Shown here: piece by piece, positions 2,871 through 55,134 of the stretch
Layout: every line of letters begins with the position of its first letter
How positions within the stretch are numbered: position 1 is the first letter of the stretch
From: Lingula anatina
Lineage: Eukaryota; Animalia; Brachiopoda
Assembly (NCBI GenBank): GCA_051362555.1
Contig: CM120649.1
Location: 16,258,567-16,322,566 of the forward strand
Length of the DNA: 64,000 bases
Direction of reading: 5' to 3'
The notes under the pieces: model-generated
What the model saw: only the letters and a program-made list of their open reading frames with translations
Told to the model about the DNA's origin: nothing
Database searches by the model: none
Program-made: the position numbers and the translations under genes

Positions 2871-4223
2871 ACAAATAAACATGATCTTGCACATCGTCTG
2901 GCCATTTATAGGTGATGACAAATATAGCTGAACAATAAATCTTAAAGACATTCTGAAGCTATCTCTTTAATTTCTTTTTTTTTTTCAAAAGGCAAAGAAA
3001 TACTACTGTTTCAAGGTTAAATTGTATGCACACTTATAATTATAACTACAGATGAACAGAACTAAAACATTATATATACAGAGCTTTCATTCATCAGCTA
3101 CAGTAAAATTAATAAATCAGTCTCAAAATGAAACAGAAACCTTTATACAGTGCTGTCTTGGGATCAGCGCCCTCTGCCTGTAAAGCATCAGAGACAGCCT
3201 GGAGTTCCTGGTTCAGGCGAGGCTCTTCTTTGAAACTACTCAACCTGGACAAAAAGGAATGGCTTTTCTTGACATTGGAAATTATTATTTCAATTCAGTA
3301 TGAATTTTAAATGATAAATACACAACCCTGACTGTTTCCTATTTGTGTAAATTACAGTGTAAGAATCTTATTTTATTTATGGAAACTTACATGTACATGT
3401 ATCTGAGCCATGGCAGTCATCAGAACAAAGACACTTCATGAGCAACAAAAGAGAAACATATTTGCTACAGAAATTTTTTTAAAAAAGAAAATCTCAGAAA
3501 GGTAAATCTAAGAAGAGTTTCTGGAAAATCTAAAATGTGTGATTCCTATTGAAATACAAACCACATACATTTCCTGTAAGTCTTTTGCAGCAAGTTTGAT
3601 ATTCCTGGCATTCTTTTCTACTTCATAGGCTTCAAACTGAAAACAGGGAGTATGTACAAGCATTTTAAGAGCCAAATACCAGTAGGTGCAAAAGGATGTC
3701 ATAACACTGTGAATTTTTGTGCAGAATCATTATCAGAACAGCGGTTGTGTACAGGTATTCTGGGCAATAAATAAATAATAAACAGTTAGATAAAATTATA
3801 TTCACACGGTTGCAGCTAAGATATTTTATTTTTTATCAAATGTGTCACTTTAATGGGACGTAACCCGGTCCCATGATTTAAAGGTAAATGTAAAGATTCG
3901 AGTTTATTTTTAGACTGGGTTGCTTTATTTGCCATTCCAAATGTGATCCAATTCCTTGGAAAAGCAGAGTAAGTAAGGCTCGTACTGTGTTACTGAGACC
4001 GACTAGAGTTTTGCATCTTAACGATGCTGAATTCTATGCCGATATCTGGCTTATAGACATTTCTCTGTACCTTTATATCAAAATTTTGTGGGAACAAAGT
4101 ACGGGCTGTGATGAGCCATGCTTTTGCAGCGCACCCATCTGTTTTCAAGCAGCTTTTTGCACGATGAATTAACCAACTTTCTGGTCGTAAGGAAGTCACG
4201 TCCTCTTCCATGGAGGCTGCCAT
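1..4223 (-). CDS. INTS10: Integrator complex subunit 10 (5' part; continues beyond window start)
   Basis: N-terminus 'WLIHRAKSCLKTDGCAAKAWLITARTLFPQNFDIK' and later 'LLILRRFP', 'NCYRKYL', 'LYKWLQKSIEFYISYIT' match INTS10 motifs. Phase-consistent GT-AG exons: 4223-4071, 3636-3569, 3244-3141, 2787-2648, 2285-2204, 1806-1660, 1273-1093, 751-594, 290-215, 26-<1. Confidence 0.93.
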
Positions 4224-4462
4224 TACTGTAAATAACCTGCGTAGATCTATATGCGCAGATGTTACTTCCCCATTTCACGCACTGTTTTTAGAGGTAATTA
4301 GAAAATACACAAGAGCAAAAGATGAACGCATTTTCATAAATATTTCATCAGAATCGCTCAGGTTATTCAGTGGACAGACTATTGCGTTATCTACTGTAGA
4401 AACGTAGATATAACAAAAAGTAAACCGGAAACTGCACTGAGGATTGTGGGTTGGCGGCATCA
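4224..4462. promoter_or_regulatory. Putative bidirectional promoter/5'UTR region between INTS10 and PCBD
   Basis: Divergent ATGs only ~240 bp apart (4223 minus, 4463 plus); ETS-like ACCGGAA at ~4424-4430. Confidence 0.6.
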
Positions 4463-10168: not shown

Positions 10169-11409
10169 ATGAAGAAGTGCCCAATGGCTTCGCTGGCAAA
10201 AGCACTGTTTTACTGCTTGCTGGCGTCCCTGTTTATGTTTATTGTTCTTCACTGCTTTGCAAGCTCAGGTAAGAGCCGTCACGTGGGGGTCTGTCTACTT
10301 CACATTTTTATGAGCGTCTCATTTTGGTATTTCTGATGTCTGTGTAATTTCAAGTGTCTGTCGTAATATATTGCTTTTCCAAGCCGAGATAAAAATCAAG
10401 TTGCTCATTTTCCTCCCCAACCTCTCTCTCTCTCTCTCTCAGACACACGCATACACGTTTTTTTTTTCATTTAATCATACTTCTTATGGTTCGCGCAGGT
10501 CCCTGGTTATTGCGCTTACGCCAACCGAACGTCTACAAGAAAAGAGCTGAGAGAGTAAAAGAGGTCTGCGATCAACTCTATGGCAAAGATGGCCGCCCAG
10601 ATTTCTTCCAAGCTCTCAAGAACATTACACTTCCGATTCAGTTCCTCATCGAGAATCAGTTCCGCGTTCTCTTCTGCCAGGTCTTCAAGGCAGGATCAAC
10701 CAATATAAAAAGGATATTTATGCAGGCTCGAGACTCCAACAGCGAGGTGCTCAACCTCGCTGAGCAGGACCCCAAGGAAGCTTGGCAAGAGGGGCTGGAC
10801 ACTTACAAATACCTCACGCGAAAGACGGACCCCAGAAACGCATCTCGTATCGTTTCTTCGTACAAGAAGCTTCTCATAGTGAGGCACCCGTTCGAACGTC
10901 TGGTGTCCTATTACAGAATGTCATTTGAGTTGCACATATTTGAGAACGACGATGTGACCGGGGCAAGCTGGCAAGTATACAGTTCTATAAGAAAGTTATA
11001 TAAACTACCTCCTCTACGCAGACCAAAACCCTTGAATTTCACTGCCCTGATTCCATTCAAGTCTTACGTACAGTTTATTATTGACTACGACTACCACACA
11101 AAGCTCGGGGACTGGAAGCCAATATTTTTCAAGGCCAACCACTGGCTTCCCATCTCGAGCCAGTGTGCCCCTTGTGCGTTGACCTATGACCTGATTGGGA
11201 AGGTAGAAACCTTGGACGACGACATCGAAGCCATTACGAAGATGCTGAACCTTAGCAGAACGATTCGCTACCCTGATAAGTTAAAAAGAAAGACGAAGGG
11301 CCATGTGAGAGAATATTTTAAACTTTTGACTGCAGAGCAAAAGGACCGGTTAAAGGACATATATGATCTTGACTTGAAATTATTTGGCTACGATTTTTAT
11401 CCTGATTAA
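10169..11409 (+). CDS. Golgi carbohydrate sulfotransferase (Sulfotransfer_2; HNK-1ST/CHST11-like)
   Basis: Exon 10169-10268 encodes a type II anchor (MKKCPMASLAKALFYCLLASLFMFIVLHCF). Exon 10499-11409 has 5'-PSB 'FCQVFKAGSTNIKR', 3'-PB 'VRHPFERLVSYY', 'HWLPISSQCAPC', 'IGKVETLDDD' and 'YDLDLKLFGY'. Confidence 0.9.
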
Positions 11410-12344: not shown

Positions 12345-14543
12345 TCATGTACATTATTATTATTATTATTATTTTGCATGTGGTCCAACCATCATCTGCA
12401 CAGTATTATATTACAGTCTACATGTAGTTCAGTTTGGTCGTTCCATGACGTCATCTAGACTATAACCGCTTAAAAGCATAATTTGCCACTGGATGTACAG
12501 TGTATATAATCTCGCCGTGTTAGCAGTGTCATGTACTTTACTCGTATACAGACATTGACATGCTGAAATAAGATTCACAGTGACGCTTTGCGTTAATGAC
12601 AGCAAAAAATTTAAATGTAGTCTGAATGGATGTTTTATTTGAGGTTAAGAGTGATTTTGACCTGAAATGGGGGGGGGGGGGGGGGGGTACTGTATAGCTT
12701 AATGGGAATTGCAATGCCCTGTTGTGGAGGAGCCTTCATGCCTACTGTGTGACCTCTTAGGAGCCGTTAATGGACATTTTTTTTATTTGGATTTGCCTGA
12801 CTTTTGAAACTTTTCCTCGACAGATTTTAGCAAGCGTTTTATGTCATCTGTTTCACTGGTGCATGTGGCATACCATCCTAGCTGCTGACTCAATTCATAA
12901 TTCAATATTTCTCGTGTAAATATATTGCAATATTCTTATTCAAGTGTTTTCCCTTAAAACATGCACTTGTTTCTATTTTCACTTTATCTTTATACTCTCG
13001 ATATCAGCCCTATTATATTCTTTGGAAAGAATGGAAACAAGCCCTGACATTAAAAAAAGACATATATCAACATTTTTACGCTACTGTGTAGTGCTGTTTT
13101 GATGAAATTCTTATTTTATTATTTTTTTTATTTTATTATTTTTTTTTGTCAGTGTATTTCTTCTACATTTTTACACTATTTTCCAGATTGGCATGTATTA
13201 AATCACTAACATGGACATTGCTGGTCATCGTGGTATTTCTCGTCAGTCTGAAGTATGGGGGACAGTTGATATATAGATCTAAAAGCAGAATACATAAACC
13301 AGGTACGGTTTGAGACACACGCCTGTATTGCTAGTGCTATTGATGATCGTAAAAATCATAAACAAGCAGCGTTATTAAAATAATATATTAAACCTAACTG
13401 ATTAGTGTTGCAGCTGACTTAAAAAAGTGTTGCATCAAAAAATTTCTTTATATTGTCGTTTCTGTTACGAATAGAGTCTGTTCGTGACAGAATTATAATT
13501 ATGGTTTCTCTTTCATTTCACTAGCAAAAGAAACGTGTCGGAAAACGGTGAGAAGGGCAGAGAACGAGGGCTACTTTAAGATTGTTGGCTATAACTGGAC
13601 AATGACACCGTATTGCCCAGAATTTGGAGCTTGCTTATTAAACAAGGGCAGGGTGCCCGTTAAAACTGCAGTGCAGGCAGAATTTGAAGAGAGGATATCT
13701 TTGGAGGACGCAGTCACTGTGATAATAAAAACTGCCAATAGACTCGGAGTAACTAAGCGTCTGGTGGAAAGCATCTTTCAATTTTATGAAAATCTCAAAA
13801 TTATTGTAGTCGATGAGGCAAATCCAGATCTACTGAGTAGGAATGAAAGTTTTCGGAAAGAGTACGACGAATGGCGCCATTACACGTCGACGACACGCGG
13901 CAAGGTATATTACATACGAGTTCAGAAAGACGCTGGAATATCACACGGTAGAAATGTCGGCCTGTTTATTGTTCGAACCAAGTACTTCTTACTCTTGGAC
14001 GATGACATGATATTCGACAAGGAAACAAACATTCGAAAACTGAAGGAGCTTCTAGATCACACTAATTTAGTAGTTGTCGGGGGTTTCATTAGAGAAAACA
14101 GGATCAAGTTGGCTATCAATGGGATATTTCGCGTGCATGCCGACCAGTTTAACGTACTCAGGACATACATTAACGAGTATCAACTCATGGCGTATGAACG
14201 CGTAAGATGCTATCCGGAGTGCTACGTGGTTGACGCAATCTCGAACTTTTTCCTCGCGAGAACGGACGCCATTTTGGATGTTGGTGGGTGGGACGTTAAG
14301 TTACGCGTTGGTGAACACAGGGATTTCATGTTGACGCTAAGGAAAAATAATTACCCGGTTGCTGTGTGCACTGATGTCATTATTGAGCATTTCCCGCCAA
14401 ATTTAGACTTGAGAAAGAAAGCCCAAAAAGTTATAAAGGATGTGTACAAAGACATGTTTTTACACAAATGGAATATAAGTAACTCGTTTGCATGTAGGTC
14501 TATTAGGTCCAAGGCGTATTACGAGTACAGATGTAAGCCTTAA
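11854..14543 (+). CDS. Glycosyltransferase family 2, beta-1,4-N-acetylgalactosaminyltransferase (B4GALNT1/2)-like
   Basis: Exons 11854-11867 (MKRCR), 13187-13302 (TM 'WTLLVIVVFLVSL') and 13525-14543 are phase-consistent. Motifs 'VTVIIKTANR', 'IIVVDE', 'GISHGRN', 'TKYFLLLDDD' (DxD), 'NFFLART', 'GGWD..L..GEH.DF'. Confidence 0.88.
12272..12371. repeat. (ATT)n microsatellite
   Basis: Long TTA trinucleotide runs; they generate spurious poly-Y/I/L ORFs. Confidence 0.95.
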
Positions 14544-15930: not shown

Positions 15931-18900
15931 GCAGGGCCACGAAGCTCAGCACAAGAAAACAGAGGACTACATATATTTTGCCCGCAGAGGCGATTCAATC
16001 ACCATACTTACACAAAGTTCAGATTGCCCTCCTCTCCGAACTCTGACCCTGCCTTGTTCTCCATCAGGTTAATCACTTCCTGGAGTTCTCCACGTGTCAG
16101 GAACATCTCGTTTTTCTAAAAATTACAAGATAATATTGCACATGATGTATATTATATTATATTATATTATATTATATTATATTATATTATATTATATTAT
16201 ATTGTGATCACCAGAAACTTTTTGTAAATCTTTTTTATATTAAATATCATATTTTATGATTTATTTAAAACTTAAAGAGGGGTGGTACAATTATAAACAC
16301 TGAAATTTTAATTCTATAATTCTAAGAAAGACGCAAATGGCGTCATAATTTATTCTAAATTTTATTTTCTGCTTTAAAACTGAAAGACATAAATGTACAG
16401 TGTAAGTGACGAAATAATAAATATACTGAGAAGTGGACAGTGTCCAGGAAAAAAGAGTCCCTGAAGTCCTCAGTTCTAAGATTCGACACGTTACCTTCAT
16501 TTCATCTTTGAGTTTATTCTTGAAGCCACCGTGCCCCATCATAAACAGTCCCTCTTTGTCGAAATTCTTGAACATCTCCAGAGGCCGCAGCTTGTGTTTG
16601 GTCATCATCTCTATCACCTTCCGCATGGGGTCCACTGGTTTAGCTGTATAAGACAATTTTCTCCATTAATATTGTTGAAAAGAATTTGAAAGCAGTACTG
16701 CTTGCAGGAGGTTTGATGGAACGATGTTGGTACTAAACGCGTCACCTCCCCCCTCCCCCCGACTAAATATTCTTTTGCCTTGTGTCTTCAATAATGCTGA
16801 CCTTTGAATTCATTGTTGTGGTATGGCTTACAATCACGTCTTTGTTGTGTCTGCATGATTGAGCAGGCAATATTTTTATAATTCTTCGATATGCAAATGC
16901 TATCCTTTATTCAACCAACAGCAGACCTTTAAAAAGTAACCAAAAACAAACATCTGGTACAACATACCGAGTCTCTCCCCGAGAGGGTCAGGGAAGAGGA
17001 CAATGGCGCCGTGAATACACCTGAATCCTGGTCGACTTTGCTTCAGAGTAGAGGACATGAAGTCAAACTCTCCGATGACTGGCACGCCCTGCACAACAAA
17101 TTTGTATTTTTGTTAATTTAAAAAAAGGTAAAAAAATTCATATATATAAATATTTAGATAAAATAGGATCGTGAAATTTATAACAAGATGTAATCAAGTG
17201 TATTTTGTTTATCATAACATCTCACAAAATCGGTTAAGACATGTAACTAATCTAAATATTTGACCAAAGAATATTTTTAAATCAATGGTACACACGATGA
17301 CGTCATATACGCCATTCGATCCTGTGTGACGTCACAACGCACCTTCATGTCCAGCAGCGTTATGTTACATTTGTCCTTTGCGACGGCCTCCAGGATGTCC
17401 AAGGCACCCGTTGTACTGATAGGGTTCAGGCCAATCTGGATGAGAGAGACATAAATATCAGAAATTTTCGAATTTTCTTAAAAATGTGGGATCTGTTGAA
17501 CTCAAGGAGTACAAACGTGAACGTGTATTTTACACACGAACATTGTCATTCAAAAAAAAAAAAAAAAAAAAAAAACGAGATAGAGAGAAGGAGAGAGAGA
17601 GAAAAATATACATAATAATGTTAGATTTTTCTTTCCATCAACTTTCTTCATTTGCGATAAATAGGACTTGAATTGGAAAAGGAATGGGGTATATTGTGTT
17701 TTCATGCTTACGTCGCGATGGTCATTACTAGGTTTTTTAAAAGAACAGATGATAATGGTGGGAAAATGTATAACATTTTCCCAATCATTGCTAGAGGTGA
17801 AATTATAATTTTGCACAAAAAGGAACCAAGAATCGCGTCGGGGCGTCCAGTCCGTACTTGTTAGTCGTCAAGTACACACCAACCCCGTTTGTAAGTATAT
17901 ACATAAAATTCAAATGACATTCATGTGTATCTCCTTGTGGATTTTATACGAAAATATCTTATGTCATTTGTCTAGGTAGGTCCTGTCTCTAAAATTCTCC
18001 CACTTCTTTTAGCACACCTTTCCAAATTTCATTATAGAGCTTCAGCTGCTGTCCCGCCCACTTTCACCAAGCATTGCGTCACGGGCCGCTTAGCACATCT
18101 GACGCTTCATCTCTGCATATTGAGTTGGGTTGTTTTGAAACGTATCCTAAATACTAATCAGATTTTCTGTAGACTTAAACAGACAGGATAACCAATTTTA
18201 ATATATATCTCTACCGTACAAATCAAGCGTATTTTATTTTATTTTAACTTTTTTGATAAAACACAAAATTTACTATGCACCCCTCAAGTGGTCCTTTTAT
18301 GTGATTTTGCTATTCTACATTTGCATGAACAGAGGTCTACTCATCATTTTCTTTCAGACGCAGCGACCCGTGGCCAGTAAACAGCACATCCCAAAAACCA
18401 TGAGAAGCAGTGCTGAATAGGAAAGCACGTTATAAGTGATATACGGTCACTGCGCGGAACGAGCGATCGCGCTGTTTGGCCTACTTTACCAAGGGAACTT
18501 GGTGTTGGACAGGCGACCATATGGACTTTTATATATTGTATGTACATACTAAGGCTGTTTATACAAAATGGAGACCAAAACGAAGCTTTGCATAGGTGTT
18601 TTCCCCGTACTGTGCGCCGTAGCTTGGATCTACCTGCCGTTCACCCGTAATCCGAGCTTGGACCCGCCGTATACTTCTACAGAGGTTCATCTTAACACCG
18701 AAACAACTCCCAGCGGTGAAACGCCCTTGCCGAGGGGGCACATGCAGCGGTTTGGGCTCCACGTAGAAAAGGAGACGGAGATCGTTGAGCTCGACCACCT
18801 TCCGGACCCAGAAACGTTTTATAAAGACTATGTATATCCGTCTGTTCCCGTGATCGTGCGAGGCGGACTAAAACACTGGCCAGCCATGGAGAAGTGGAAG

Positions 18901-19167
18901 AATGAAGAGTACTTAAAGGAGAAGTTTGGTCATTGTCTGTATACCATTAGAAAAAAGGTTGTAGATGAACACCATCCAGCAGAAATGTTGATGTCCTTGG
19001 CGGACTTTCTTGAGTAAGGGCTGTGTGCCGATGTAGATGAAAGTTTTAACAGACAGCTAAGCATATTTAAAAAGAAAAAAAAAGTATAGTTCTGTAGTCA
19101 CTCACACTATATTTGTAAGCATTAAGATATCTCACAAACCTTTGATCATCATCATCATCATCACCAT

Positions 19168-19199
<32 letters not shown>

Positions 19200-20811
19200 T
19201 TATTGTTAGTTTACATAATTATTAACATATTTTAGTCCCATAACGTGCCACAATAGAACATATATTGTACATGCACATTAAGAAACATTAGGCCTCTCAG
19301 TGGAGCGCTCATCGTCCAAAAATGGCCAATTGTTCATTTCTGTGATAAAAAGCACGAAAATATCTATTGCATTTATTTAATATTTCAGTGCATATCGGAA
19401 AGAAAAACTCTATTTGACAGCATACATATGCCCCGAGATGACCCAAGACTTCTCCATGCCTAGCTGCATTGGCTGTGACGCCTATGTTAAGATGGTAGGA
19501 TTTTGTTAATACAGGAGTATATTACTCAATCGTTTTGCAATGATTGGACTTGTATGTTGTAGCGTAAAAAAATTGTAAAACAATTTTTTGTTGATATTTT
19601 CTATGCAAGGTGTTATTCATATTATTAGGAAAAAAAACACATGTAATAGAGTTAATGGTGTGATTTTATAAATCATAAGCATAAGCCCTGTGAGGTGGTT
19701 GCACGCGTGCGTCACTCGCAAGCTAGAATGGCCGTTCTCCGTAGCAGACGACGAGATACCATACATTTCATGCACTCTAGCTGAGCAACAGAAAAATTGA
19801 TTTTTTTTTCAACAGGTGATTTCACCCCTTTACATATCATGAAATTTTCATTTGAGCAGATATGTTGAGGTATAAACATAAAGGTTCCTTTCTTTAAAAA
19901 TGAATGTGTTGTTGTTGGCTGCGCCACGAAATATTGACGAAATTTTTCTTAGGGCTGTATGTTATTTCTCGACATCTGGTCTCGCCTTGCCGACCAATCG
20001 GGTCGAGAATAGTACATGTTCCTGACGTCCCGAACCATCCACATAAACGATAGTGTGTCTGCAAAGCAGCTTGGAAGCATACACATACATAAGTAGTAAC
20101 ACAATAATTGTGAAATAAGGCTTTTCTCCTCACCACCAAGCGTGTAATTGCATGTCATCGATCAACTGTTTGGACGACCGTAATTATAATCAGCACTGTC
20201 CTAGCATTTCTTAAGAGTACTCAAGATGAATGAATGTTTTTAGACACCCACAATTACTTGATCATCCTTCTTCTAATGATACGTATTATTAATGCAGCCC
20301 TTTATGTTAAGCATGCTCCGTTCATACACTCCCATTGTGTTATTAATATGTCTGGTGTGATGTCTCTGTCTTTCCGCCCAAGCAGAATCTCACGGTGTTT
20401 ATTCTATTTTTTTTTTTAGTCTTACCACAGAATTTTGCTAGTTTTTATATTTTGATTGTATGCTTGAGTTTACCATTACGAGAATCATTAAAAGTTATGG
20501 TAGCTTTACCTATTATATGAAGCTATGGAAGCACATAAACCTCCTCCAACACCTCAAATAAACTCAAATTACAATGTTATAATTATGATAGTTGATGATC
20601 GTGTGATCTCTTTTGCCAGATTCTCGACATGATTCTTTTCTTTAACACTGGATGGACCAACACAGAAGTTCACATCGACCCCTATGAGATTTTCTATACC
20701 CAAATAAGGGGCAAACGCCAATGGATTTTGACACCGCCCAGTGATGGAAAATACCTCCACACAGAAGAGTTCCCGTACCATGCAGGTATGAAATGAATTC
20801 TCTCTTTCTCT

Positions 20812-20851
<40 letters not shown>

Positions 20852-21595
20852 TCCCTCTCACACACACACACACGCACACACACACACACACACACGTACA
20901 GTCAGCCCATATCCCATACCAAGTACTAGTATATGAAAGACTATGCGACGAACTAAAATGTCAGCTTATTGACGTATGCTGTAACTCACTTAAAATAAGG
21001 CGGATGTGGAGAACAAAAAACACAGACTTGTTGTAAAGACATGTTACTTAGCACGGGTAACCATGCAGAACCCTGACTAACCTTGGCTGTAAATTTCACG
21101 TAGCCTTTATAAGTAAAAAGAGGGGTGCGGAGCTTTACACCATAAGGGTTTCAAATTTAGTTACAAAATTGAAAAAAATTGACTGCATCATGTAAAGCCT
21201 TGAAGTGGCCATGACATTAGATATTGTAAAGTGCAGCCTTGATATTTCATTACCCTTTCCACAGGTATGTGTCCCGCAGACGTCGATGCCGTAGACCTTA
21301 TCAAATATCCCAATATTTCGAAGGCCGCCATCTACAACGTCACAATAAACGAAGGAGACATGCTCTACGTCCCGGAGGCGTGGTTTCACCAGGTCCGCAC
21401 CACGGAGGGAGACACTAACATGGGGCTAGCTCTTTATCTGAATCACACTTCGTGTATCACCAGGTGCCCAGATACGGATGATATAGAGTTTTTAGAAAAC
21501 TGCATGGAAGCCAGGAAACAAACCCCAAAAGGTGGGTGATTCTGCTGGTGATCATTTGAAAGTGACTTGCTGTATTTGGCAGACAATTTGCACAC

Positions 21596-21666
<71 letters not shown>

Positions 21667-22307
21667 AAAGAAGGATCATTAATGAAGTGAAAAAATATTT
21701 AAACTCGTTAGATAAAAACCGTCAACTTCAGTTCAAATATTATGGGGAAAAACGTAAGTGAAGAGGACCGTTTGTGGTATGTAAGCCCTCTCATACCCAC
21801 TCTCAGTGACTCTTGGGCACGCCTAACAACTTATTTTTGATATATTTAAAGTTCATTAATTTCTTTTAAAAACCCGTCATTTATCAATATATTCCAGAGA
21901 TAACTTGCAACGAAAGAACTGACAACATTCCATACAGCGCAGTGGTGGAGAAGTACAAAGACATCTATCCCCGACTTCTGATTCATGAAGAAAAACAGAC
22001 AGAGATGAAAACATCGGTCACGACGCTGTTACAGAGTGGACATAGCAGTACGTGAACATATAAACTTACTGTTTTTGGTATACAAGAGCAAAGCAAAGAC
22101 GACTTGTTCAGGGTGGTAGGCTTCGGGAAGGGAGTTTAAAAATCATTTTTATGATGTCTTTATTAGATTTTATGCTTTCCTTTTCAATTATTAGAAGCCA
22201 TCTGTCTGTATTAGATTTTATGCTTTCCTTTTGCTTTCCTTGCTGTCGATCACTCGCTGTCCTTTCAGTCAGCGATTAGATGAGTACCACAGGAGGACTA
22301 AATAACC

Positions 22308-22364
<57 letters not shown>

Positions 22365-23831
22365 GCTGCCCTAAGTATTTTCACAGCCAGTGACTTTGAT
22401 GTTTTGTATGTTATCAACATATTGTGTAGATACATTTCATGTGCAGCCCTATTTTATCAGAAGATAGCAGACAATAATGTTGTAAACATCATAAGAAAGT
22501 CACTATTTCCTCGGTGTGGTCGCTTCTTTGTATGAGTGTACGTATGTGTGCACTTTTATCCCCATCAAACTCGTAGATTTGAGATTATCATGTATTTCCC
22601 CCAAAATGAGATGTTTAATTTTTATCTATTCCACAGTGCCGGTCCAGGGTTTAAGCCTCACGAGGCTAGGTAAAGAACAGTTAGGGACGACTGTACGGCA
22701 CGCCTTGCTGCTCGGATACAGGTAAGGCGGATAATTCATCACCTTTTGAAAATATGATTATCACCAAATGCCTTAAACTATCTCGTGTGCGTTAATTTAC
22801 TCTGCTTATATTTATGGATTTTTTTTACCCCAAACCAAGACATATAAAGGTGATATGTCCGCCGAAGACGGTTGCTTTACGTTCTAAATTTTATCCTGTA
22901 AAATGTTTTTTTATATTGATTGGTTTTTGTTTCATTTAAAAAATCTTTTTGACTTAGATTTTGTCATGTTTTTTCCAATCTCCAGACTTTTCCTCACGGA
23001 CCCAGACGACGACAGCGAAGACGCTTTGGGGTCAATTTTAGCTGATAACCAACACTGCAAACGTGAAGACGTTTTCGTAGTTGTCAAACTTGACTCCACT
23101 TTGGAAGGAGACGCCGTTAGAAAATCGATCAAAAGATCAATGGAGAGACTAAAGACAGACTACGTGGATTTGGTTCTTTTTCGAGCGCCGATATGTGACA
23201 AAGATCAGGAAGGATGTGAAGCGCGCCCAGGTGGTTGGGAAATATTAGAAGAACTTCACGACGCTGGAACTATTCGTTCTCTTGGGCTTAGCGGTTTTAA
23301 GATTTCACAAGTACAACGGCTGGTTGCTTCGGCCAAAATCCGGGTTTCAGTTGTCCACGCTAAGTTCGATATTACTTATCGCAACACGGAGTTGAGGGAT
23401 TTCTGCAACCAGCACGGCATGCGTTTCATGGCGCGCAACTTCTTCGGTCCCCAAAAATTAAAAGAACTCGTTCTGAGCAGTGAAATGATTAAAATTGCTG
23501 CGAGGCTGTTCCGCACAGACACATCTACGACAATAATCAGATGGGCCTTGAATAAAAACATTACTGTAATCACCCCAGCAACTGACCTTCGACAGATGGC
23601 TTTTAATAGGCGTGCGTTGTTTTTTGACGTAGCGCCAGGGTCTTACCTGGACGACTTGGATAATTTTCCTCATAAAGCGTGATGAACGCATATTAATTCA
23701 ATTATAACTCAGTGGCGGGTACCTATTTTTAACTATATGTGAATTATAATTCAGAAATGTATATATTGCATATAATTATTATACAGAATTAAATTTGTCG
23801 TTTATGTACAAGGAAATTAACTTGTTCGGCT

Positions 23832-23862
<31 letters not shown>

Positions 23863-25532
23863 GACGGTTCACCAGGTCATTCTGGCAGCCACTCACCCTG
23901 AGCGTCTCCAAGGTTTCGTTCTTCTTAATGCCGTTGGCCAGGAACTGCGCCCCGGCCCAGTTGATCCTGTTATTGGTGATATCCAGCTCTTTCATATACT
24001 TGTTCCGCTTCAGGGCTTGACCCAGAGCCAAAGCACCTTCGTAACCGAACCCATTCCACGAGAGATCCACGTGGGTCAGATTTTTGTTTGACTGAAGAAT
24101 GTAGAGATAAATACATTTTGTCAGTTTTATTAAGAAATTTGAGTATGCTTCATTTTTTACTTTATTCCAAATTATTCCATCTACCATTTATTATTTTATT
24201 TATATATTCAACATTCTTCTTATTAATTTTTTGAGTTAGTGTGCCGTGCGTGTACCACATTGAATTTCATTAACAGTCCCATTCATTTATTTGCTTTCAT
24301 CTACCACTTTTTCTTAATATTCAACATCTTTACCCCACCAAACCCACTCCTCTATATTTACTTATATCACTACCGTTACTTAATAAATGCATTTGATATC
24401 TTAACCCCTTCCCTCCTAGCCCGGTCAGTGTCACTAAAGCATTTGGATCAACAAGCAGTACGTGTAAGTCTACGTGTCCAACAGTTATATTACTGCGCCA
24501 TCTCACCTGTAACGCACGCGCAATAATAACAGCACCTTTTCTCCTGATATGATTCCAACTGAGGTTGAGCGTTTCTATTGAGCGATTTTCCACTGAAATA
24601 ACAAAAAGCATGACATGTATTTAAAGACGAAGTAAGTTAATCTACACTGTCAAATTTAAATGAATTTTGAAAAGTGGCTCTACTCCACAATGTTATAAAA
24701 CTTGTTAATTTTTAAGATGACGCGAGCGAATTTTACGCTATCAAACGTGACTAGCTCTTCCTAAAGCAATCCGACTGCCCTACCATATAGAATAAATGTT
24801 CTTTTAAGAAAATCTATTCACAAAAACCCGTGCTGCATACAAAGAATAGTATTCTATGTTTCAAGTCTTAATTTAAGTTTTAACTTAAAAAAAAATCAAA
24901 TCATAACTTACTGAGCGCTTTTCCAATATACTGAGCGCCGCCTTCCTCGAAGTCATTATGGCTGAGGTTTAAATGCGATATTCTAAAGTTTCCCTGAAAG
25001 ATTCAAAAAGAAATGTTTTGATGGAATTTCAGAAAAGATGCTTTCTGACAAAGGGTAGAAGATATAATTGCTTCGTGTTGTAATTGATAATTATTCCGTA
25101 TTTACCACACAAAAATTCAGAATGTCTCCATTTAACACTGCATCTATTTGCAACAAATAATAAAGTTCTTAGATTATATGTCAGTGATGTTGAAAAAACA
25201 ATATATGTTCTTTTGTGCTCTCTTTCGCTTTTATGATGACAATATCCCCACTATCTCCAATAGATGAAATGTATTTGAGATAAAAGGCATTTCCACAAAA
25301 AAGATATATTAACTTGCACAAAAACAACGTACTTTGACAACAGGCTAAATAATAAATGTATTGACATGCAATGCACCGCTTTGTCAGGACGTCATATATA
25401 AATTACAACGGAATATCTTCATTTGTATCGATTCATTCACGTTGGGTGGTCGTTGGGTGCTTAACAATTTACAATGCTTTGACTTTTTTCATCATATTTG
25501 CGTAGAAAGTGTTTGTGACAGAGAAAGTGTGC

Positions 25533-37300: not shown

Positions 37301-38643
37301 CTTTTGTTATTACTTCTGCTGTTGTTGCTTCTATAGTAAATCTGGCAAGGGGACACCTCTGTCAAAAAGAAATTGTGAAGTAATCTGCAGGATAGTAGAA
37401 TTTTAGTCATGTATTCAGCATTTTTCTGTGATCAGATATCCATTTAAAATATTTGAGTAAATCACGGCAGTAGATCCTAATAGCTTATTATTTACAGGAG
37501 CACATTTGCTTTTTATATTGCAATCACATTTCACAGCCTTTTTCATTTTACAGCAAAAGAAAGAGCACAGCAACTTCGTTTAAATTGTGATTCAAACGGA
37601 GGCGGAGGGACTGGTGGTGGAACCGGTGGTGGAACTGGAGGGGGAACCGGTGGGGGGACCGGAGGTGGAACCGGTGGGGGAACCGGAGGTGGAACTGGAG
37701 GGGGAACCGGTGGGGGAACCGGAGGAGGAACTGGCGGAGGCAGTAAGTGTGGTTTAAAATACATGCATTTGTGTGTATTTTTTTCTTCAGGTTTGTTATG
37801 GCCAACGAAAAGGATATATTAATTTTACATGTAGATCTACATATACGGTACTTTTATGTCACTTTTTGTTTGTGCAGTTACATTTACCTGATTGTCTGGC
37901 AACGTTAAGTACAGTTATCAAATGCCGCCAAAGTCGATACACCTACAGTAGTATTTGACCATGTATCATTCCAGACTGTACGGACAATGACAACCGCTGT
38001 GCTGGCTGGGCGGGAAGAGGAGAGTGCGACAAGAACCCGAGGTACATGCTGGTCAACTGCCGGAAGAGCTGTCGCCAGTGTTCAGGTAAATATTCAGCTG
38101 GTAATAAAAGCATATTTTCTTATTATACTCTCTGCCATGTGCAGTAAATCCAGTGACCCACCCTCCATTAAATTCATACAGGTAAGGGTAAGCGTGATCA
38201 AATTTTAGGGCGGTTTATCTGCACATACTGGTAATTATGGGAACAGGGCCTTGTATTACAGGAGTTCTTTTTATATAATGGCGGTACTGGCACTATAGCT
38301 TATGCCGGATTGTAATTTTGGGTTGAACGTTAGGTGAAGACTACACGTTTTCGCTATCTGTCTACATACTTAATATAAGCACCTGTCACTGCTTCTAAAG
38401 TATATCAACACTTAATGGACCAATTTCCTGTGACATTTGAACAACTGTGTTCGATATATGCATGTATAAAAATTAACATTTTTTTCTTGAATTCCTGTTC
38501 TTCCAGGAGGAGGCGGCGGAGGAGGAGGCACCAACTGTGTGGACAGGAACATGTTCTGTGCATCCTGGTCCAGACGCGGGGAGTGTACACGCAACCCTAG
38601 GTACATGCTGACCAACTGTAGGAGAAGCTGCCGGCAATGCTGA
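34396..38643 (+). CDS. Secreted HEXXH zinc metallopeptidase (lethal-factor/zincin-like) + (GGGT)n linker + 2 ShKT domains, paralog A (~468 aa)
   Basis: Exons 34396-34459, 34832-34915, 35281-35475, 35825-35958, 36125-36430, 36931-37117, 37554-37742, 37975-38085, 38507-38643. Signal peptide; 'EDIALHEFSHGVH'...'STKEEYWAEGVQSYF'; ShKT 'CTDNDNRCAGWAGRGECDKNPRYMLVNCRKSCRQC'. Confidence 0.88.
36446..36704. mobile_element. Foldback (near whole-length palindromic) MITE, copy 1
   Basis: Arms pair along their length: ttcccaca/tgtgggaa, gatcgatc, ggggttcacgctaaatt/aatttagtgagactcccc, ggcttaaatgtctgtcacgccta/taggcgtgacagacatttaagcc. Second copy at ~56789-57023. Confidence 0.8.
37598..37742 (+). repeat. 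Coding 12-bp tandem repeat encoding the (GGGT)n linker
   Basis: ~11-12 units of GGN GGN GGN ACN inside exon 7 of gene A. Confidence 0.9.
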
Positions 38644-39286
38644 TGACAATCTTCCCGATATAAAGTTCAGTTTCTGTAATTTATAAAGTTTAGATCTACC
38701 TTCTTTGATTACGTGACTGTTGATGTAGGAGCGTGGTCACAGCGGTTTTCACGGTTCTCAACGGTTCTGTCTGGTAGTTGATGGACAGTGTTTTAGTAGC
38801 CTGGTACATAATTAAAATTGGAACAGCATTTTCCAAATTTTGCCAAGTGGGCACGTGACGTAATTTGTAGAAAAAATCAACTTAAAAACGTCGAATGTGA
38901 AGGCCGAATACGTTAGGGACATTCAAAGCCGTTGTTTTTTAATTCTCGCCTGGCTTGAATATTTTCAAATGTACTTGCAATTGTAAAGTAATGCACACAT
39001 TTTGTCATGTATCAAGAATGTGAATAAAAGTAAAAAGTGAATAAAAGTTTGTGTGGTATTAATATTTCTAGCTTTTTGATCCTTTAGTTACGACCTAATT
39101 TGTGACACACGATCTTACCGTGGCAGACGTTAAGAACGTGTGAGAAAAATGTCATATGGGGTGGTACGTAGCTAACGGAGAGACCGTAGACGACGGTGGA
39201 TTTAGATTACCCGTGTGTTTCTGTATAAAAGAGCTCTGGTGTCCAGAAAGAACACCTAAAGGGTCAGTGGAGGAATAAACGACACC

Positions 39287-42200
39287 ATGGCATGGTTCTT
39301 GACATCGCTGGCATGCTTGCTGCTGAGTGTCGTGGGTGAGTGGATATCGATAATTCACAAAAAATTACTTCATTTCTTAGCCTTAAACACGCGAAACAGT
39401 TCAAAAGAGGGCAGAAGAGATCTGAAATATCCCTTTTGTTAGTTTTCAATATTCATTGAAGACTTTCGGTTACGGCTAAATTGTCGTAGACATAAAAAGC
39501 GCGCCGACTCTAGACTAAAGTTTCATTATGAAACGGAACCATATTCTGCTTCCAATATTTCATGAAATGTGTTAAGAAGTGACGGTGCAGTTCTTGTCGC
39601 AACTGTTTTGAAAATCGTTAGTGTAATCTTGTCGCCGATTTGTAAAGGTGTGAGGAAACACGAGTCCATTGAAGACACGGGTTTCATTGCATGTGGGCCG
39701 TGTCATGTGCCCATTCTGTTATTATAAATACTTACATTTTTATTTATTTTTAAACTATTACTCTAAACATCAACCCTCCTTCTTATCCTTGAGTAATAAC
39801 AAGAGCAAAGCAAATGTCTTTACAATATGTACTATAAATGAGTATAAATGAATATTGTTTTTAATTCCATTAATTATTGTTTTTGATTCCATTAATATTG
39901 TTTTTAATTCCATTAATTAAAGTTCTCTCGTCGTTATCCCCCTATAACGTGCAAGTGTCCTACGTGGGCAGCCCACGTTCCCTCATCAATAATTTTATTC
40001 AACCTCATTGGGTCTAAGGTAGGAATGATGCATTTAGTTTCACTGTGTGTAGATATATAGATACAAAGCATATCTTTGCGTGCCCAAATGAGATCAAGTA
40101 GGCAAAATAATAGCTAAACACGGTCATCAAACAAACCCTGGATCAAAGCAAAATCAAACTTTTCCTTCATCATTATTGACTCACATTATTTTCCAATGTT
40201 ATCACCTAGCTGTACCAGTATCTTCGTCTGTGTTCATGAGAATGCTGACGTCACGAGGCAGCGAAAGGCCTGGGTCCCCCACGAATTCCCACAGCTGTTG
40301 GAGCGTTCGATCTGTCCCCAATGACCTCCGCAGTGCAGCCATTATGGGCCCTAACGGCCTTAGCACGTACTATCAGAAGTACACTGAGGCGTACGGGATA
40401 CCAATATTAGGTAGGGAGTTGAACATTGTATGTTATTGTTCCTAATTGTTTTGATGGACGATACAATTTTATGATTAAAATTTTTGAAAAATAGACTCCT
40501 TGTTTTTATAGTTCACAACTTTTAGATATTTTGAGAATCAGATTTTCACAATGAATTTTTACCCTGCATTTGTGATTATATGATTTTTACCCTGCTTTGG
40601 CATTATAAACGATAAGTTTGTTGTATTAAAGGTACACTCCATCCGATTTACCTGCCGAGACTGATTTTCCCGGGAAAACGAGCAATTTTCTGGTACTTAC
40701 GAATCATTTACCAACCCTGCCTGCAGTTGGCTCCCACCTTTGATAAAGTTTATAAAGGTTGACTAACTTTACTTTTCCATTTTACAAAACAATGCGTATA
40801 CATGTATTTCCTTTTGATAAAACAGCTTCATGCTGCTCTAATCCTGGCAGGTTCTGTGCATGTGCCGGAAGATGCGGTCAAACGCGCATGTTATGTCGTA
40901 AGATTCTTGTTCGCCGACAGACAAGACGTCCGTCGCTCCTACTACAAACACTTCGGTCGTTTCGCCGTGTATGGCCAGAACGAAGTCACCCGAAGTATCC
41001 CTGAGCATGCGTACTTGGATCCATTTTGGGACACTCGAGCACGTGGCCTCGGCGCCACTTTGACGGCACCCGTTGCGACCTGCGCGGAAGAAAACGCTCT
41101 CTGTTACTCCACCGACACCTACGACCCCAACGAGGACATTGCCCTGCACGAGTACTCCCATGCCCTGCAGAGTCTCGGGGCATACTTTGCTGTGCCAGGG
41201 TTTGAGGCTCGCTTGAAGAGCGCGTACAGCAGTGCCATATCACGTGGTCTGTGGGCCAACACGTATGCCGGTACTGACGAGGTCGAGTACTGGGTAGGTA
41301 TCAGTATCCACTGAGTTAGACAATTATGTAGGCGATCATGTTGGCGTCTCCTATGCAAGTGACGCTTTCTAAATGTCTATTATCAAAATTAAGGTGAATC
41401 CTATTATGATGATGATGATGATGATACCACAGCGATTATTGTAACTATATTAAACATCCAACAACCAAGATTTTCTAGGACAGTACCATTTATATATAAT
41501 TGGCTTTTTCCCTTCTGCAAAGGCTGAGGCCGTACAAAGTTATTTCAACGCCAACACCCACCGAGACACTGTGAACGGCATCCACGGTCCTGTCAGCACA
41601 AGAGACAAGCTGAGGGCCTACGATCCCGCCATATATGCCCTGATCCAGGAAATCTTCCCCTGTAACAACAACTACATTACCAGATGCGGCAATAGCCAAA
41701 CTCTACGTTGTAGGTGTCTTGTTGCTGTACTGTTTTCATTTCTTTACTGTGAAGGTTTTATAAATTCGTTTGTCTAATTAGTTATCTGTTTGTCGTATGT
41801 TTGTTTGCATTGGTTCGTTTCTCTTTGTCTCTTTTTCTCTCTATATATGTAAGTTTATTCATCTAAGGTTTTTCAGATTTAAGCGTTTGTCCCTTTTTTT
41901 CAATTTTTGCGTATTTTTATTTACTTGTTTATTCATTTTTCTATATCTTTTCCCTTATTATGCCAACTGATCAAGGATTAACGCAACATCCCTTGACTGT
42001 TTTAAACCTTCACTTTCTATCCCGACATAACTGCATGGTTATTCACCATATTCCGCATCTAAATAATTTCTGGAACACAATTTATTTGATCGCATTTCAG
42101 CTCAGGAGCATGCTCAGCAGTTGAGAATGAATTGTGCCGGGTCAGGAGGGGCTGGAACTGGAACAGGAACCGGAACCGGAACCAACACCGGAACTGGGAC

Positions 42201-42616
42201 TGGAACAGGTACAACTTTAAGTTTTATTTTCAGTAGAAACAACAAAGACATGTATCTTGGTGTAACGTATTGTCTGCCAATGCGTTTGCTGCAAGAAAGT
42301 TGGTTAGAGTTTGGAAAATAAAACCATAAGAAGCGCTCTATTTTAATTTTTAATACCTATATGTAAGTACCCCACCCCCCGGTATATACATAGGTAATTC
42401 TCTGAAGAATAAAATTACAATGAATAAACCGTGCTATTTGTGTTGATTAGGGACCGGTACAGGGGGCAGCTGTGTGGACAAGAGTGAGAATTGCCAGTAC
42501 TGGTCTCAGACCGGAGAGTGTTCCAAAAACCAAGCCTACATGTCTCAGAACTGCAAGAAGAGTTGTAATCTCTGCTCAGCTGGAGGCCAGGGTAATTAGA
42601 AGCACGCACGCGCGCG

Positions 42617-42657
<41 letters not shown>

Positions 42658-43741
42658 GACAATTGCACTACATTGCTTGGCATCGTTTTACAGCTACAGT
42701 AGTCGGCATCCATCTTTAAAGGACAAATTGGTAGACCCGTACCCCTTTCAAAAATAAAATAATTCCCCCTGCAGTACCAATAATCGACGTTTTTTAACTA
42801 TATTTTCTCGATATTTCCATTTCCATTTCTATTTTTTTTTCTATTTCTATTTTTGTTCATAGATTTATTATTCACTAAGTAGACTGAATGCATTCGTTTT
42901 TATAGGGCTCAATCTGTGCGTGTTTAGAGTCAATGTGTTTGTGTTTAAGGAGTCAATATATGTTTGTGTTTATAGACTCGATGTGTTTGTGTTTGGCGAC
43001 TGCATGTGTTTGTGAGTAGGGAATCAATGCATTTGTGATTAGGGACTCGATATGTTTGTGTTTATTAGGAGTCGATATGTTTGTGTTTAGAGGGTTTGTG
43101 TTTTTGTGTTTAGGGACTCGATGTGTTGCGTTTAGGGACTGAGTATGCTTGTGTTTAGAGAATCATTGTGTTTAGAGAGTCATTGTGTTTAGGGACTCAA
43201 TCTGGCAGCTGCTCAGACCAGAGCCAACACTGCAAGTACTGGTCAGAGACAGGGCAGTGCACTCAGAACGCCGCCTATATGCTGAAGAACTGCAAGAAAA
43301 GCTGCAACCAATGTTCAGGTACAGGTAGGATCATTTGTGTCAGCAATATTATCATTATTTGTGTAACCAACCCGGGATCATCGCCCAGAATTTCGGAGAT
43401 AAATGTATAAACGTACCTTTATTATCAGTAGATGTCTCTGCTTTTCTCACTCTGTAATTTTTATTAATCTTAAAAGAGACAAGGCCACAGCCACCATATT
43501 CAAAACTGTATACTTCTGTTTAGACCTTCCTAATTCCTTTTCCCTTTAGTGCATGCTAAGTTCATGCATTTATTTGTTAGGTTAATTTAATACATGTGTT
43601 TATTCGTCAGGTACGGTAGGACACACAGGAAGTTGCGCAGACCAAAGCACAAACTGTCAGTACTGGTCAGATACTGGAGAGTGCACCAGGAACTACACCT
43701 ACATGTCCCAGAACTGCAAGAAAAGCTGCCGCCTCTGTTGA
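39287..43741 (+). CDS. Secreted HEXXH zinc metallopeptidase + (GT)n linker + 3 ShKT domains, paralog B (~463 aa)
   Basis: Exons 39287-39335, 40210-40410, 40851-41293, 41523-41709, 42101-42208, 42451-42591, 43193-43324, 43611-43741. Signal peptide; 'EDIALHEYSHALQ'...'DEVEYWAEAVQSYF'; three ShKT modules 'C.D....C.YWS.TG.C..N..YM..NCKKSC..C'. Confidence 0.88.
42895..43200 (+). repeat. Degenerate ~20-23-bp intronic minisatellite (tgtgtttagggactcgatgtgtt-like)
   Basis: About 13 diverged units ending at, and including, the real splice acceptor 'gtgtttag|ggactcaa' at 43192/43193. Confidence 0.8.
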
Positions 43742-45005
43742 CCGCCAACGTGTCAATCAACATGTAGTAACTCGGTATATCTCTTGGAAAGAACTGAGGT
43801 TTTAGATTAACCGCGGTAATACTTAAGAAATAAAATAATACCTCACTTGCATGACGTGTCTTTTGTTACTTTCTATCAATATGATAAATTTATGTACATA
43901 GCATGTAGCATTAATATGGTAGTTTTATTGTATCCGGTATTTATTGCGAGTGACGTTTACATAGATAATAATACTGTTTTCTGGAAATAAGGAAATAACA
44001 TCGTGTGTATGTGAACCTGCAAAGGGACATGTGAATAAATTATCGGCGACACGCGGCCTTCTGGACTTAACATCAAAAAATAAAATAAAACGCGCCTATA
44101 TACAGTCACCCATATTTAGCCCTCTCCTTCAGGAGTAGAAGCTTTTGAACTAAAAAACAACGCATTTAAGCCTTGCAATTGTGAAAGGTTAAAGGATATC
44201 GAATGTCGGTTGACAAAGTAAATCGTGTTGGAGTTGAAAAATACATCATCATATACCCTTTATGTTAGGAACAAATGTGAAGGTATGCATTTTCTCGGGT
44301 ATATCATGTCCATGAATAACGGTCTCTGAAAGATTCTCTGTTAAATAAAAGTAAAATTACTGCGCATTTTGCTTTTCCATAGTCAAACTTGTGGTAAAAG
44401 TTTTAAAATAAGGAAGAGCAAACGCTAAATGTATAATGAAATATGTCTTAAAGGTAAATACCAACCGTTGCTCCCCTCCCCCAATACGCCGAAGTTTGAT
44501 TTTATTCACCTATATGAAAGTAACAGACGAGATGTGATAGGATATATGCAATTTATGATTTATTCACTTATCAGATGATAATCTGTCGTAAATGCATTGC
44601 TATAAAAAAAACACAAGTAACGTGTAAAGGTATGAACTTAGTATGGCTTTTGCTTAATATATTGTGACCATTACTGAAGCTATATATCATTTAAAAAAAA
44701 AACTTTGGTAGCACGGTAAAAAAGAATATCACTAAAACTGTATTTTTTCCTTATAATTTTTATCATACCCTCTTTGGTTTCAGCACTTCTTTAGAATCTG
44801 ATTATTTTCCATTATGTGTATGCGCATACTAACAGTGCCTTTCGGCAGTTATATAACACATAACTGAAATATAAATACCATTGTTATTTCCAAAATAAAA
44901 AAGTGTAAAACTTGTACCTGTACATTACTTGTGAAATAATTCAAAACCATTTGATTTTTTGTGTGTAGGGGTAAATTTGATTTTAACATAAAAAACACGG
45001 GTTAC

Positions 45006-51215: not shown

Positions 51216-51432
51216 CCATTTTGATTGAACCATATGGCTTAACCAGCAGTACAGGACTAATGATATCCCCAAAAACATAAGTCAGAATTAATTTGTGACT
51301 TGTTTGTAATGAAAACTTATCCTCTTATTTTTAATATAGCTTGCTACATTAAGATTTATATAACTAGATGGCACTGAGGACTGTCTTTACCACGGAACAG
51401 GAAAAAATATCCTTTCTGTGCCTATATAAGAA

Positions 51433-54400: not shown

Positions 54401-55134
54401 CTGTTCCTAGAATCAAACTTAAACACTTTCAGGAGATAAATGCCTCGTGCTCGTATGTGTATTCATATAACACTGAACAACACGAGTCTCCTGCATATCA
54501 AAGGGATAACAACTACTGTATTCATATAAGTTCCACAATAAATACATTGTAAACAGCACCTAGAAATAAAAAAAAACCTCCACAAAAAATGCGGTTATTG
54601 CAATTGTTCCAAAATAGGTGCTTGCCATTGGACCGGGAGGACCTTCATAGATGGTTTCCCTCCGTAATAATCTCTTAAGAGATGATTACAAGTAAAAAAA
54701 CGTCTAACTTTGAATGTCGGAACGGATATATTAACCATGGGCAGGTTTGAATGCGTCTTAGTTTTCCCCAGGGAAATCCGTTTCATGGCACTTTCCCTGC
54801 CAAAATGAAGAGTTGTTATCCCTTAAAACGCGACACAAAATTATAAATGGGACACGAAGGGCCCGGGAATGCCTTATGGACACATTAAATGGGGTGGATT
54901 TAGGCCGTCTTCTGAGTCTTCCGGAAGACGGTCAGATTTTCAAGTTTACATTGACGGGTATCTAATTTTTCTGTCGGAAGACGGTCAAAAGTGGAGGATG
55001 GATCAATAAAGATAATTCGGAAGCCTGTCAGAAAATATCTCTGGATCCGCCCCTGCATTTTAACTCGTTCATCTTTGTACTTTCATACAAGAACACAAAT
55101 ATATTGTTAACGGCGGTTGTGGCAGGGTCCTCCT

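Follow-up and report, generated by a model that had tools for sequence, protein, structure and literature searches.

A gene on the forward strand of the 64-kb Lingula anatina window analysed here (64,000 nucleotides of contig CM120649.1) encodes a JmjC domain joined to an aldo-keto reductase (AKR) barrel, and RNA reads place both parts on one transcript. On balance we favour the reading that its product is a luminal Fe(II)/2-oxoglutarate (2OG) hydroxylase of a secreted or surface protein, in which the barrel has been kept for folding or docking. Luminal 2OG hydroxylases, such as the collagen prolyl and lysyl hydroxylases, shape animal matrices, and AKRs are classically cytosolic enzymes. An orthologous JmjC-AKR gene, found from choanoflagellates to amphioxus, points to a secretory-pathway redox chemistry that is so far unknown. 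A first-pass annotation, made from the letters of this DNA alone, had proposed a hydroxylase of the endoplasmic reticulum (ER) or Golgi lumen carrying a pseudo-AKR, and this core reading is supported by the sequence, with both activity and location predicted.

Gene model and transcript

The model comprises seven exons separated by GT..AG introns, and it splices into 1917 bases, that is, 638 amino acids (aa) and one stop, in agreement with the seven in-frame exons and roughly 638 aa of the first-pass annotation. A search with exon 7 returned a single protein, the NCBI L. anatina record P0001 (LOC106152915), which is also 638 aa long and identical to the window model at 636/638 positions; both differences fall in exon 1. 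Pfam places Cupin_8 at aa 82-288 (E 1e-35) and Aldo_ket_red (PF00248) at aa 396-568 (E 3e-27, 95.7 bits against a cut-off of 24). Taken singly, exons 1, 3 and 4 exceed the cut-off for Cupin_8 and exon 7 that for Aldo_ket_red.

Seven of nine listed L. anatina RNA runs were mapped to two stretches, 22400-23830 and 20905-21575; run X5 yielded 0 reads and is no test. On the first stretch run X1 gave 364 reads, 51 of them across the exon 6-7 junction, with zero depth in the intron bins, while X4, X7 and X8 gave 22, 21 and 32 reads, one X4 read also spanning this junction. The 52 loose read ends of X1 before exon 6 have a consensus identical to the last 30 bases of exon 5 at 29/30. On the second stretch the loose ends behind exon 4 (41 in X1, 48 in X2, 53 in X3) gave in each run a consensus equal to the first 30 bases of exon 5, and those before exon 4 (46, 39 and 40, respectively) match the exon 3 end in two alleles. 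Depth over exon 4 is steady at 55-84 in the three runs, with clean splicing, and falls to zero past 21548. Read-through of the exon 4 donor, which would lead to an early stop and a JmjC-only protein, was found in none of the reads listed on 20905-21575.

Four of the six junctions (3-4, 4-5, 5-6 and 6-7) thus have read support, short reads linking the exon with the first iron ligands step by step to those of the AKR; junctions 1-2 and 2-3 are based on the NCBI protein and on paralog alignment. Because RNA reads join exons 3-4-5-6-7, the JmjC and AKR parts are made as one transcript. The three joints that the first-pass annotation had marked for checking (21531/21898, 22047/22637 and 22721/22986) are the exon 4-5, 5-6 and 6-7 junctions supported here. 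The opposite case it had named, a transcript ending after the JmjC exons with the AKR expressed separately, was looked for in the RNA reads and did not appear.

The two domains and their compartment

The iron triad, called intact at first sight, is indeed present as His202, Asp204 and His281. Aligned through the relative P0020, residues Tyr157, Thr199, Ile208 and Arg217 correspond to JMJD5 Tyr272, Ser318, Asn327 and Lys336. The available text of PMC9712658 describes JMJD5 Lys336, Ser318 and Tyr272 as binding the C5 carboxylate of 2OG; here the basic and hydroxyl residues of this set are Arg217, Tyr157 and Thr199. Arg occupies the 217 position in 10/10 Lingula rows and in P0013, and Lys in 7/7 intact-type fusions and 114/120 JmjC proteins without AKR. 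The 208 position holds Asn in 7/7 intact-type fusions, 1/9 Lingula copies and 98/120 JmjC-only relatives, and Ile in the gene studied.

Both replacements, Asn to Ile and Lys to Arg, had been noticed in the first-pass annotation and are real, but they give no sign of a broken 2OG site. In PDB chain 4csw, which from its residue spacing we take to be YcfD of Rhodothermus, Val stands opposite the Asn and Arg opposite the Lys. In both proteins this Arg follows the first His by 15 residues (H133/R148 in YcfD, H202/R217 here). YcfD of Rhodothermus, with H133, D135 and R148, is reported as shown to hydroxylate arginine, the role of its Arg being given as predicted, in the available text of PMC5862935. 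Since an active enzyme has Val and Arg at the same places, Ile208 and Arg217 alone do not imply inactivity, and judging from these residues we find it fairly probable that the JmjC domain is still a working hydroxylase.

The GHxxxhG motif was found in 105/141 JmjC relatives and is also present here. An AlphaFold2 model from a 55-row alignment reached pLDDT 89.3 and pTM 0.82; it superseded a model from 8 sequences in which the JmjC core was poorly resolved (pLDDT 71.6). The best structural match of the JmjC part is human JMJD5 (6f4n; Z 23.0, rmsd 2.7, 224 aligned), with JMJD7 (7yxg, Z 22.4) within 1 of it, followed by TYW5 (3al5, 21.1) and FIH (2y0i, 21.0).

The N-terminus, described at first pass as hydrophobic, contains the most hydrophobic segment of the protein (Table 1), and similar segments occur in full-length homologues. 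The protein has 4 N-glycan sequons. In a 21-row alignment Cys178 and Cys332 are each present in 20/20 aligned rows, the latter confirming the Cys-containing linker that had been proposed; Cys477 (20/20) and Cys484 (19/20) form a pair within the AKR, and Cys303 and Cys319 occur together in 10/20 rows. These Cys pairs are putative disulfides. A K/H/RDEL end is found in 26/120 JmjC-only relatives and an xxEL or xxEF end in 54/120; KDEL also closes the Branchiostoma fusion P0011. Ends of the K/H/RDEL type are missing from the Lingula proteins, which suggests a membrane anchor or secretion. From these features, the protein is very probably luminal (ER/Golgi). The predicted secretory-pathway AKR subfamily seems to extend beyond the fusion, as P0142, P0149 and P0153 are AKRs with hydrophobic N-termini within the fused-AKR clade, and P0153 also carries KDEL and a beta-propeller.

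The AKR part adopts the (beta/alpha)8 fold (structural match with Z 32.1, rmsd 2.3, 266 aligned), which together with the Pfam assignment agrees with the full barrel seen at first pass. Compared with solved AKRs and with the family, it retains 1/4 tetrad residues, Lys441. The first-pass annotation was right that the Tyr is absent and the His changed to Arg (Arg473); the Asp, however, is not displaced as it had held, but replaced by Leu410. Asp is kept at that position in 8/9 Lingula copies, and Asp415 occupies the Tyr site. Ten NADP-contact positions were scored, 8/10 of them taken from the codeinone reductase list (PMC8524200); the Pro and Ser flanking the Lys were added to these, and the numbering is that of aldose reductase.

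By this score the gene studied keeps 2/10 contacts, having lost the Asp, Asn, Gln, the nicotinamide-stacking ring and the Pro-Lys-Ser motif. With Tyr and His lost and 2/10 contacts kept, the barrel is probably dead for catalysis and cofactor binding together; that it is non-catalytic appears highly likely from its residues. The nucleotide binding suggested at first is unlikely in this copy and plausible in several paralogs. It is likely that the barrel is now a structural or substrate-docking domain. When the JmjC and AKR parts were predicted as a complex, without use of an alignment, the score was 0.02, which we count neither for nor against a contact between them.

Spread and ancestry of the fusion

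At least nine JmjC-AKR genes are present in Lingula, comprising eight proteins and P0158 (short isoform P0010), which has 43-46% identity to P0001. An AKR-only Lingula record, P0194, has the same altered motifs. P0001 shares with seven paralogs (alignment A1) 50-55% identity in the JmjC domain, 21-33% in the linker and 43-46% in the AKR. Across the nine copies the AKR Tyr is kept in 0/9, His in 0/9, Asp in 8/9 and Lys in 9/9, with Lys at the His position in 7/9. NADP contacts number 10/10 in P0002, P0003, P0004 and P0007, 8 in P0005, P0006 and P0008, and 6 in P0158, so that the gene studied has the most decayed AKR of the nine; P0013 has 5. The fused AKR domains outside the Lingula clade have Asp, Lys and His in 11/11 and a Tyr 5 to 8 residues after the Asp in 11/11 (at the canonical +5 in 7/11), with 6 to 10 NADP contacts. 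This pattern suggests that the AKR decayed in two steps, catalysis first and the cofactor site later.

The range of the fusion given here is a lower bound, based on the best 150 of 9562 HMMER hits, from which no absence (for instance from vertebrates, molluscs or annelids) follows; word-indexed searches gave Lingula proteins and one bacterial AKR and missed the distant fusions. Single alignments covering both domains were found, among these best 150, in the amphioxus Branchiostoma (P0011, with two AKR domains), the acorn worm Glandiceps (P0012), the sponges Oscarella (P0014) and Sycon (P0017), the sea anemone Nematostella (P0015) and the choanoflagellate Stephanoeca (P0018), besides further records. 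Four of these six named-species fusions end in a PQQ-repeat-like beta-propeller. Subsets of the domains occur as well: JmjC-propeller (Hydractinia P0183; P0092, P0108), AKR-propeller (Branchiostoma P0153) and signal-AKR alone (P0142, P0149). P0009, P0016 and P0019 were set aside as tandem AKRs without JmjC. The choanoflagellate evidence is the one Stephanoeca transcript, for which contamination is possible.

Trees were built for the JmjC domain (a quick one of 137/141 rows and a careful one of 44/141) and for the AKR (42/60 domains); the rows dropped were fragments, isoforms and redundant tandem AKR copies and, from the careful JmjC tree, also most JmjC-only rows. The careful JmjC tree gathers all 15 fused domains in one 26-row clade (100/99), in which Lingula stands beside the deuterostomes (98/91), with sponges, cnidarians and the choanoflagellate outside that group. 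In the AKR tree a single 25-row clade (100/99) holds all 21 fused domains and also includes two signal-bearing stand-alone AKRs. Lingula and P0013 together form a starred clade in both the JmjC and AKR trees. The simplest reading of the two trees is one ancient fusion. The ESM Atlas offered one feature match at 0.77, to an AKR/beta-propeller cluster of 65 members, as a lead only.

These relatives compose a natural pseudoenzyme series: fusions with both sites intact; P0022 and P0038, in which a dead JmjC without the HxD iron ligands is fused to an AKR with full tetrad and 10/10 NADP contacts; four Lingula copies whose AKR has no catalytic residues but keeps the cofactor site; and the gene studied, whose AKR has neither. 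Such a series makes the function of each domain directly testable.

The first-pass annotation had not recognised the architecture from characterised proteins. It is not a one-off, being ancient with an intact tetrad outside the Lingula clade, and its JmjC family was predicted in 2010; the novelty stands insofar as the open-access literature searched yielded no account of the JmjC-AKR fusion, its age, a luminal AKR or the decay series, the supplement and figure of Iyer et al. 2010 lying outside that scope. Because the JmjC family was already predicted and both folds are textbook ones, the fusion is not a new kind of system.

Iyer et al. 2010 predicted a secreted JMJD5-like family hydroxylating cell-surface proteins, and the main text of PMC2938197 describes it as lost in vertebrates, arthropods and nematodes. 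As characterised there, its members share with our gene an N-terminal hydrophobic segment, GHxxxhG, conserved Cys, a JMJD5-type fold and lineage-specific expansion in an invertebrate. In contrast, a full AKR barrel is fused here (the word 'reductase' is absent from the main text of PMC2938197), and the Asn and the 2OG Lys are replaced by Ile and Arg. That main text restricts the family to animals, whereas the choanoflagellate transcript P0018 falls in the fusion clade. No assayed member of the secreted JMJD5-like family was found in the open-access literature searched.

Proposed function, alternatives and neighbouring features

The gene encodes one expressed protein, likely to be anchored in or to pass through the ER/Golgi lumen, where His202, Asp204 and His281 would hold iron and Tyr157, Thr199 and Arg217 the 2OG carboxylate, like the Tyr, Ser and Lys of JMJD5 and the Arg of YcfD. 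By analogy with JMJD5, JMJD7 and FIH, the most likely substrate may be a side chain of a secreted or cell-surface protein; to a protein substrate we give about an even chance. The two trees point to an ancestral gene of signal-JmjC-AKR-beta-propeller type with two working redox sites. On the way to Lingula the propeller would then have been lost, the 2OG Lys replaced by Arg, the AKR deprived of its Tyr and His, and the gene multiplied to nine copies or more; the copy studied would afterwards have lost the cofactor site too.

JMJD5, JMJD7, FIH and TYW5 resemble our protein in fold (Z 21-23), in the His-x-Asp...His triad and in the Tyr and Ser/Thr for the 2OG carboxylate, but they use Lys for 2OG, have no AKR and share 20-26% identity in structural alignments. 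These four enzymes are intracellular. YcfD, as described in the available text of PMC5862935, is an active enzyme with Arg at the same spacing and a hydrophobic residue at the Asn position; it differs in belonging to another JmjC clade and in being a cytosolic bacterial enzyme with a ribosomal substrate. REPI, an opium poppy P450-AKR, likewise has an oxygenase N-terminal to an AKR with a non-canonical tetrad, and oxidation followed by reduction, with channelling expected, is described for it in the part of PMC11522673 available. It differs in its haem P450, its alkaloid substrate, an active AKR with Asp and Tyr, and an unrelated origin, while our barrel has no cofactor site; two working redox sites of this type are not expected in our copy, where the barrel is probably dead. 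For the intact-type fusions, oxidise-then-reduce as in REPI is the best analogy, with compatible residues in 7. An alternative for those fusions would be a recycling role, in which the AKR restores a reductant, ascorbate for example, that the iron site uses.

Structural matches of AKR type also include SmbA (Z 23.4) and a radial-spoke chain (Z 21.4), and in SmbA, Chlamydomonas RSP5 and Kv-beta the barrel serves ligand binding or structure; unlike the protein studied, none is luminal and none is fused to a dioxygenase. RSP5 is not known to be catalytic, and Kv-beta keeps bound NADPH.

Several observations weigh against a working hydroxylase with a retained barrel. At the start of strand 3, Ile208 takes the place of the Asn described by Iyer et al. 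as highly conserved across the yW-hydroxylase/FIH/JMJD5 clade; since the careful tree makes this a secondary change inside the clade, the copy is a derived variant rather than a typical member. Of all Lingula copies, this gene sits on the longest end branch in both trees (0.56 for JmjC, 0.81 for AKR), and the decay is therefore not limited to the barrel. In exons 6-7 the read variants are non-synonymous in 17 codons and synonymous in 10 (ratio ~0.5), not significantly different from neutral (p 0.067); exon 5 adds one further non-synonymous variant. All read variants of the JmjC exons 3-4 are synonymous (4/4), but the contrast between JmjC and AKR within X1 is not significant (p 0.23). One of the 17, a C-to-T change at 22645 in 4/61 X1 reads (2 start points), creates a stop at codon 382 and would leave a JmjC-only protein, although it may be an error or a rare allele. 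Finally, AKRs with unusual tetrads can be active, as the poppy enzyme DRR demonstrates. The variant numbers are compatible with relaxed or unrelaxed selection alike and neither prove nor exclude either. The reads of X7 and X8, which are 95-99% alike, could stem from a different population or from a closely related paralog.

The same anatomy could also belong to a Golgi hydroxylase of a glycan, lipid or small molecule, the dead barrel being a sugar or metabolite pocket. In its favour, the structures and models nearest to the AKR are reductases of sugar acids and carbonyls, an acidic loop is common to the Lingula copies, as is a basic residue where the His would be, SmbA offers an AKR-like barrel turned to ligand binding, and the two nearest upstream same-strand open frames are of Sulfotransfer_2 and GT2 glycosyltransferase type. 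The nearest characterised JmjC folds, however, act on proteins (JMJD5, JMJD7, FIH) or tRNA (TYW5), adjacency is weak evidence in animal genomes and Lingula has 30 carbohydrate sulfotransferase genes; we consider this reading unlikely. It is still less probable that both domains are decaying, leaving a non-catalytic binder or a relaxed gene, with activity held by other Lingula paralogs. The long end branches, the Asn to Ile change at the 2OG site, AKR variants indistinguishable from neutral and the rare nonsense variant would fit such decay, but the open reading frame is intact, exon 4 is covered and cleanly spliced in three runs, the JmjC variants are all synonymous, and the iron triad with Tyr, Thr and Arg has been kept at only 50-55% identity to the paralogs. 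Moreover, the real dead JmjC relatives P0022 and P0038 differ by losing the HxD motif.

The barrel might instead be rewired, as an NADP(H) sensor or as an imine or iminium reductase that acts on the JmjC product without the Tyr acid. A precedent is poppy DRR (PMC11522673), whose tetrad reads DYMP; it is fused to an oxygenase and is active in reducing iminium ions, and in the view of its authors extra titratable residues may be unnecessary for a reduction of this kind. Paralogs that keep the cofactor site may therefore be rewired and not dead. Seven Lingula paralogs fit this pattern, four with 10/10 and three with 8/10 contacts, all without Tyr and His, and the frequent Lys at the His position agrees with it. 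Yet DRR, as described there, keeps its Asp and Tyr, and our copy retains 2/10 contacts, so that for it rewiring seems improbable; P0002, P0003, P0004 and P0007 fit far better, and for these four a rewired or sensing AKR is possible, if somewhat short of an even chance. That two adjacent genes were wrongly annotated as a single fusion has a negligible probability. No single short read covers all exons, and junctions 1-2 and 2-3 come from the NCBI protein and paralogs, but every listed loose end behind exon 4 leads to exon 5 and every one before exon 6 comes from it, and the same domain order recurs in nine Lingula genes and six other named species.

A bolder extension of the luminal hydroxylase reading, speculative and as a whole doubtful, would be that an ER/Golgi enzyme of oxidise-then-reduce type (JmjC, disulfide-bearing AKR and beta-propeller) exists unrecognised in choanoflagellates and many marine animals, performing a new two-step modification of secreted molecules. 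In Lingula the gene would have expanded and both sites would have been rewired together (2OG Lys to Arg; AKR Tyr lost and His to Lys), giving either a new chemistry or a hydroxylase gated by NADP(H), perhaps serving the shell or the body-wall matrix; our copy would be the end point, its barrel purely a docking domain. A shell role for the gene itself was considered and found no support in the analysis. The words 'cupin' and 'aldo' are absent from the main text and one supplement of the Lingula genome paper and from the main text of a 2026 lophotrochozoan biomineral proteomics paper.

Table 1. Coordinates and content of the JmjC-AKR gene in the window
Feature	Position	Strand	Content
Exon 1	18568..19013	+	aa 1-149: start codon, hydrophobic signal or type II anchor, low-confidence stem, GHxxxhG, JmjC start
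N-terminal hydrophobic segment	18586..18636	+	aa 7-23; top 19-residue hydrophobicity window of the protein (Kyte-Doolittle, KD 2.18)
GHxxxhG motif	18736..18756	+	aa 57-63; defining motif of the secreted JMJD5-like family
Exon 2	19389..19494	+	aa 149-184: Tyr157 (= JMJD5 Tyr272, 2OG-binding), Cys178 (20/20 aligned)
Exon 3	20620..20785	+	aa 185-240: Thr199, His202 (20671-20673), Asp204 (20677-20679), Ile208 (Asn in FIH and JMJD5), Arg217 (20716-20718; Lys in JMJD5, Arg in YcfD)
Exon 4	21265..21531	+	aa 240-329: distal iron ligand His281 (21387-21389), JmjC barrel end, Cys303/Cys319 pair
Exon 5	21898..22047	+	aa 329-379: linker with Cys332 (20/20 aligned), AKR N-terminal hairpin start; joins JmjC to AKR in the transcript
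Exon 6	22637..22721	+	aa 379-407: AKR barrel strand 1 and helix 1
Exon 7	22986..23682	+	aa 407-638 and stop: remaining pseudo-AKR barrel
Exon 7 residues (AKR equivalent)			Leu410 (Asp), Asp415 (Tyr), Lys441 kept, Arg473 (His), Cys477/Cys484 pair
Exon 7 residues (AKR equivalent)			Gly510 (Asn), His531 (Gln), Arg557-Asn558 (aromatic-Ser), Thr-Pro-Ala 603-605 (Pro-Lys-Ser)
3' untranslated region	23683..23830	+	read depth ~20 falling to 2; many molecules start at 23718

Upstream of the gene and on its strand lie a 338-codon open frame at 10393-11406 (+) with Sulfotransfer_2 (E 2e-39), of the Golgi carbohydrate sulfotransferase type, and, as the nearest recognised upstream neighbour, a 351-codon open frame at 13488-14540 (+) with Glycos_transf_2 (E 7e-13). 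With the gene studied, this makes a run of three likely secretory modifying enzymes, which may be due to chance. Downstream, an exon of a convergent gene at 23865-24095 (-), leucine-rich-repeat-like as labelled by eye, ends about 180 bases past the stop of the gene studied.

Elsewhere in the window, an exon at 3993-4274 (-) matches Integrator subunit 10 just under the cut-off (E 4e-6). In a multi-exon gene at 37500-43750 (+) the linkers are rich in Gly and Thr and exons are repeated, one of them with an ShK-like domain at 43159-43407 (E 2e-7), and a GC-rich open frame of 402 codons at 45009-46214 (-) has no Pfam match above the cut-off. The regions 51400-55750 and 60400-64000 form a degenerate duplication of several kb in which blocks are 70-93% identical.

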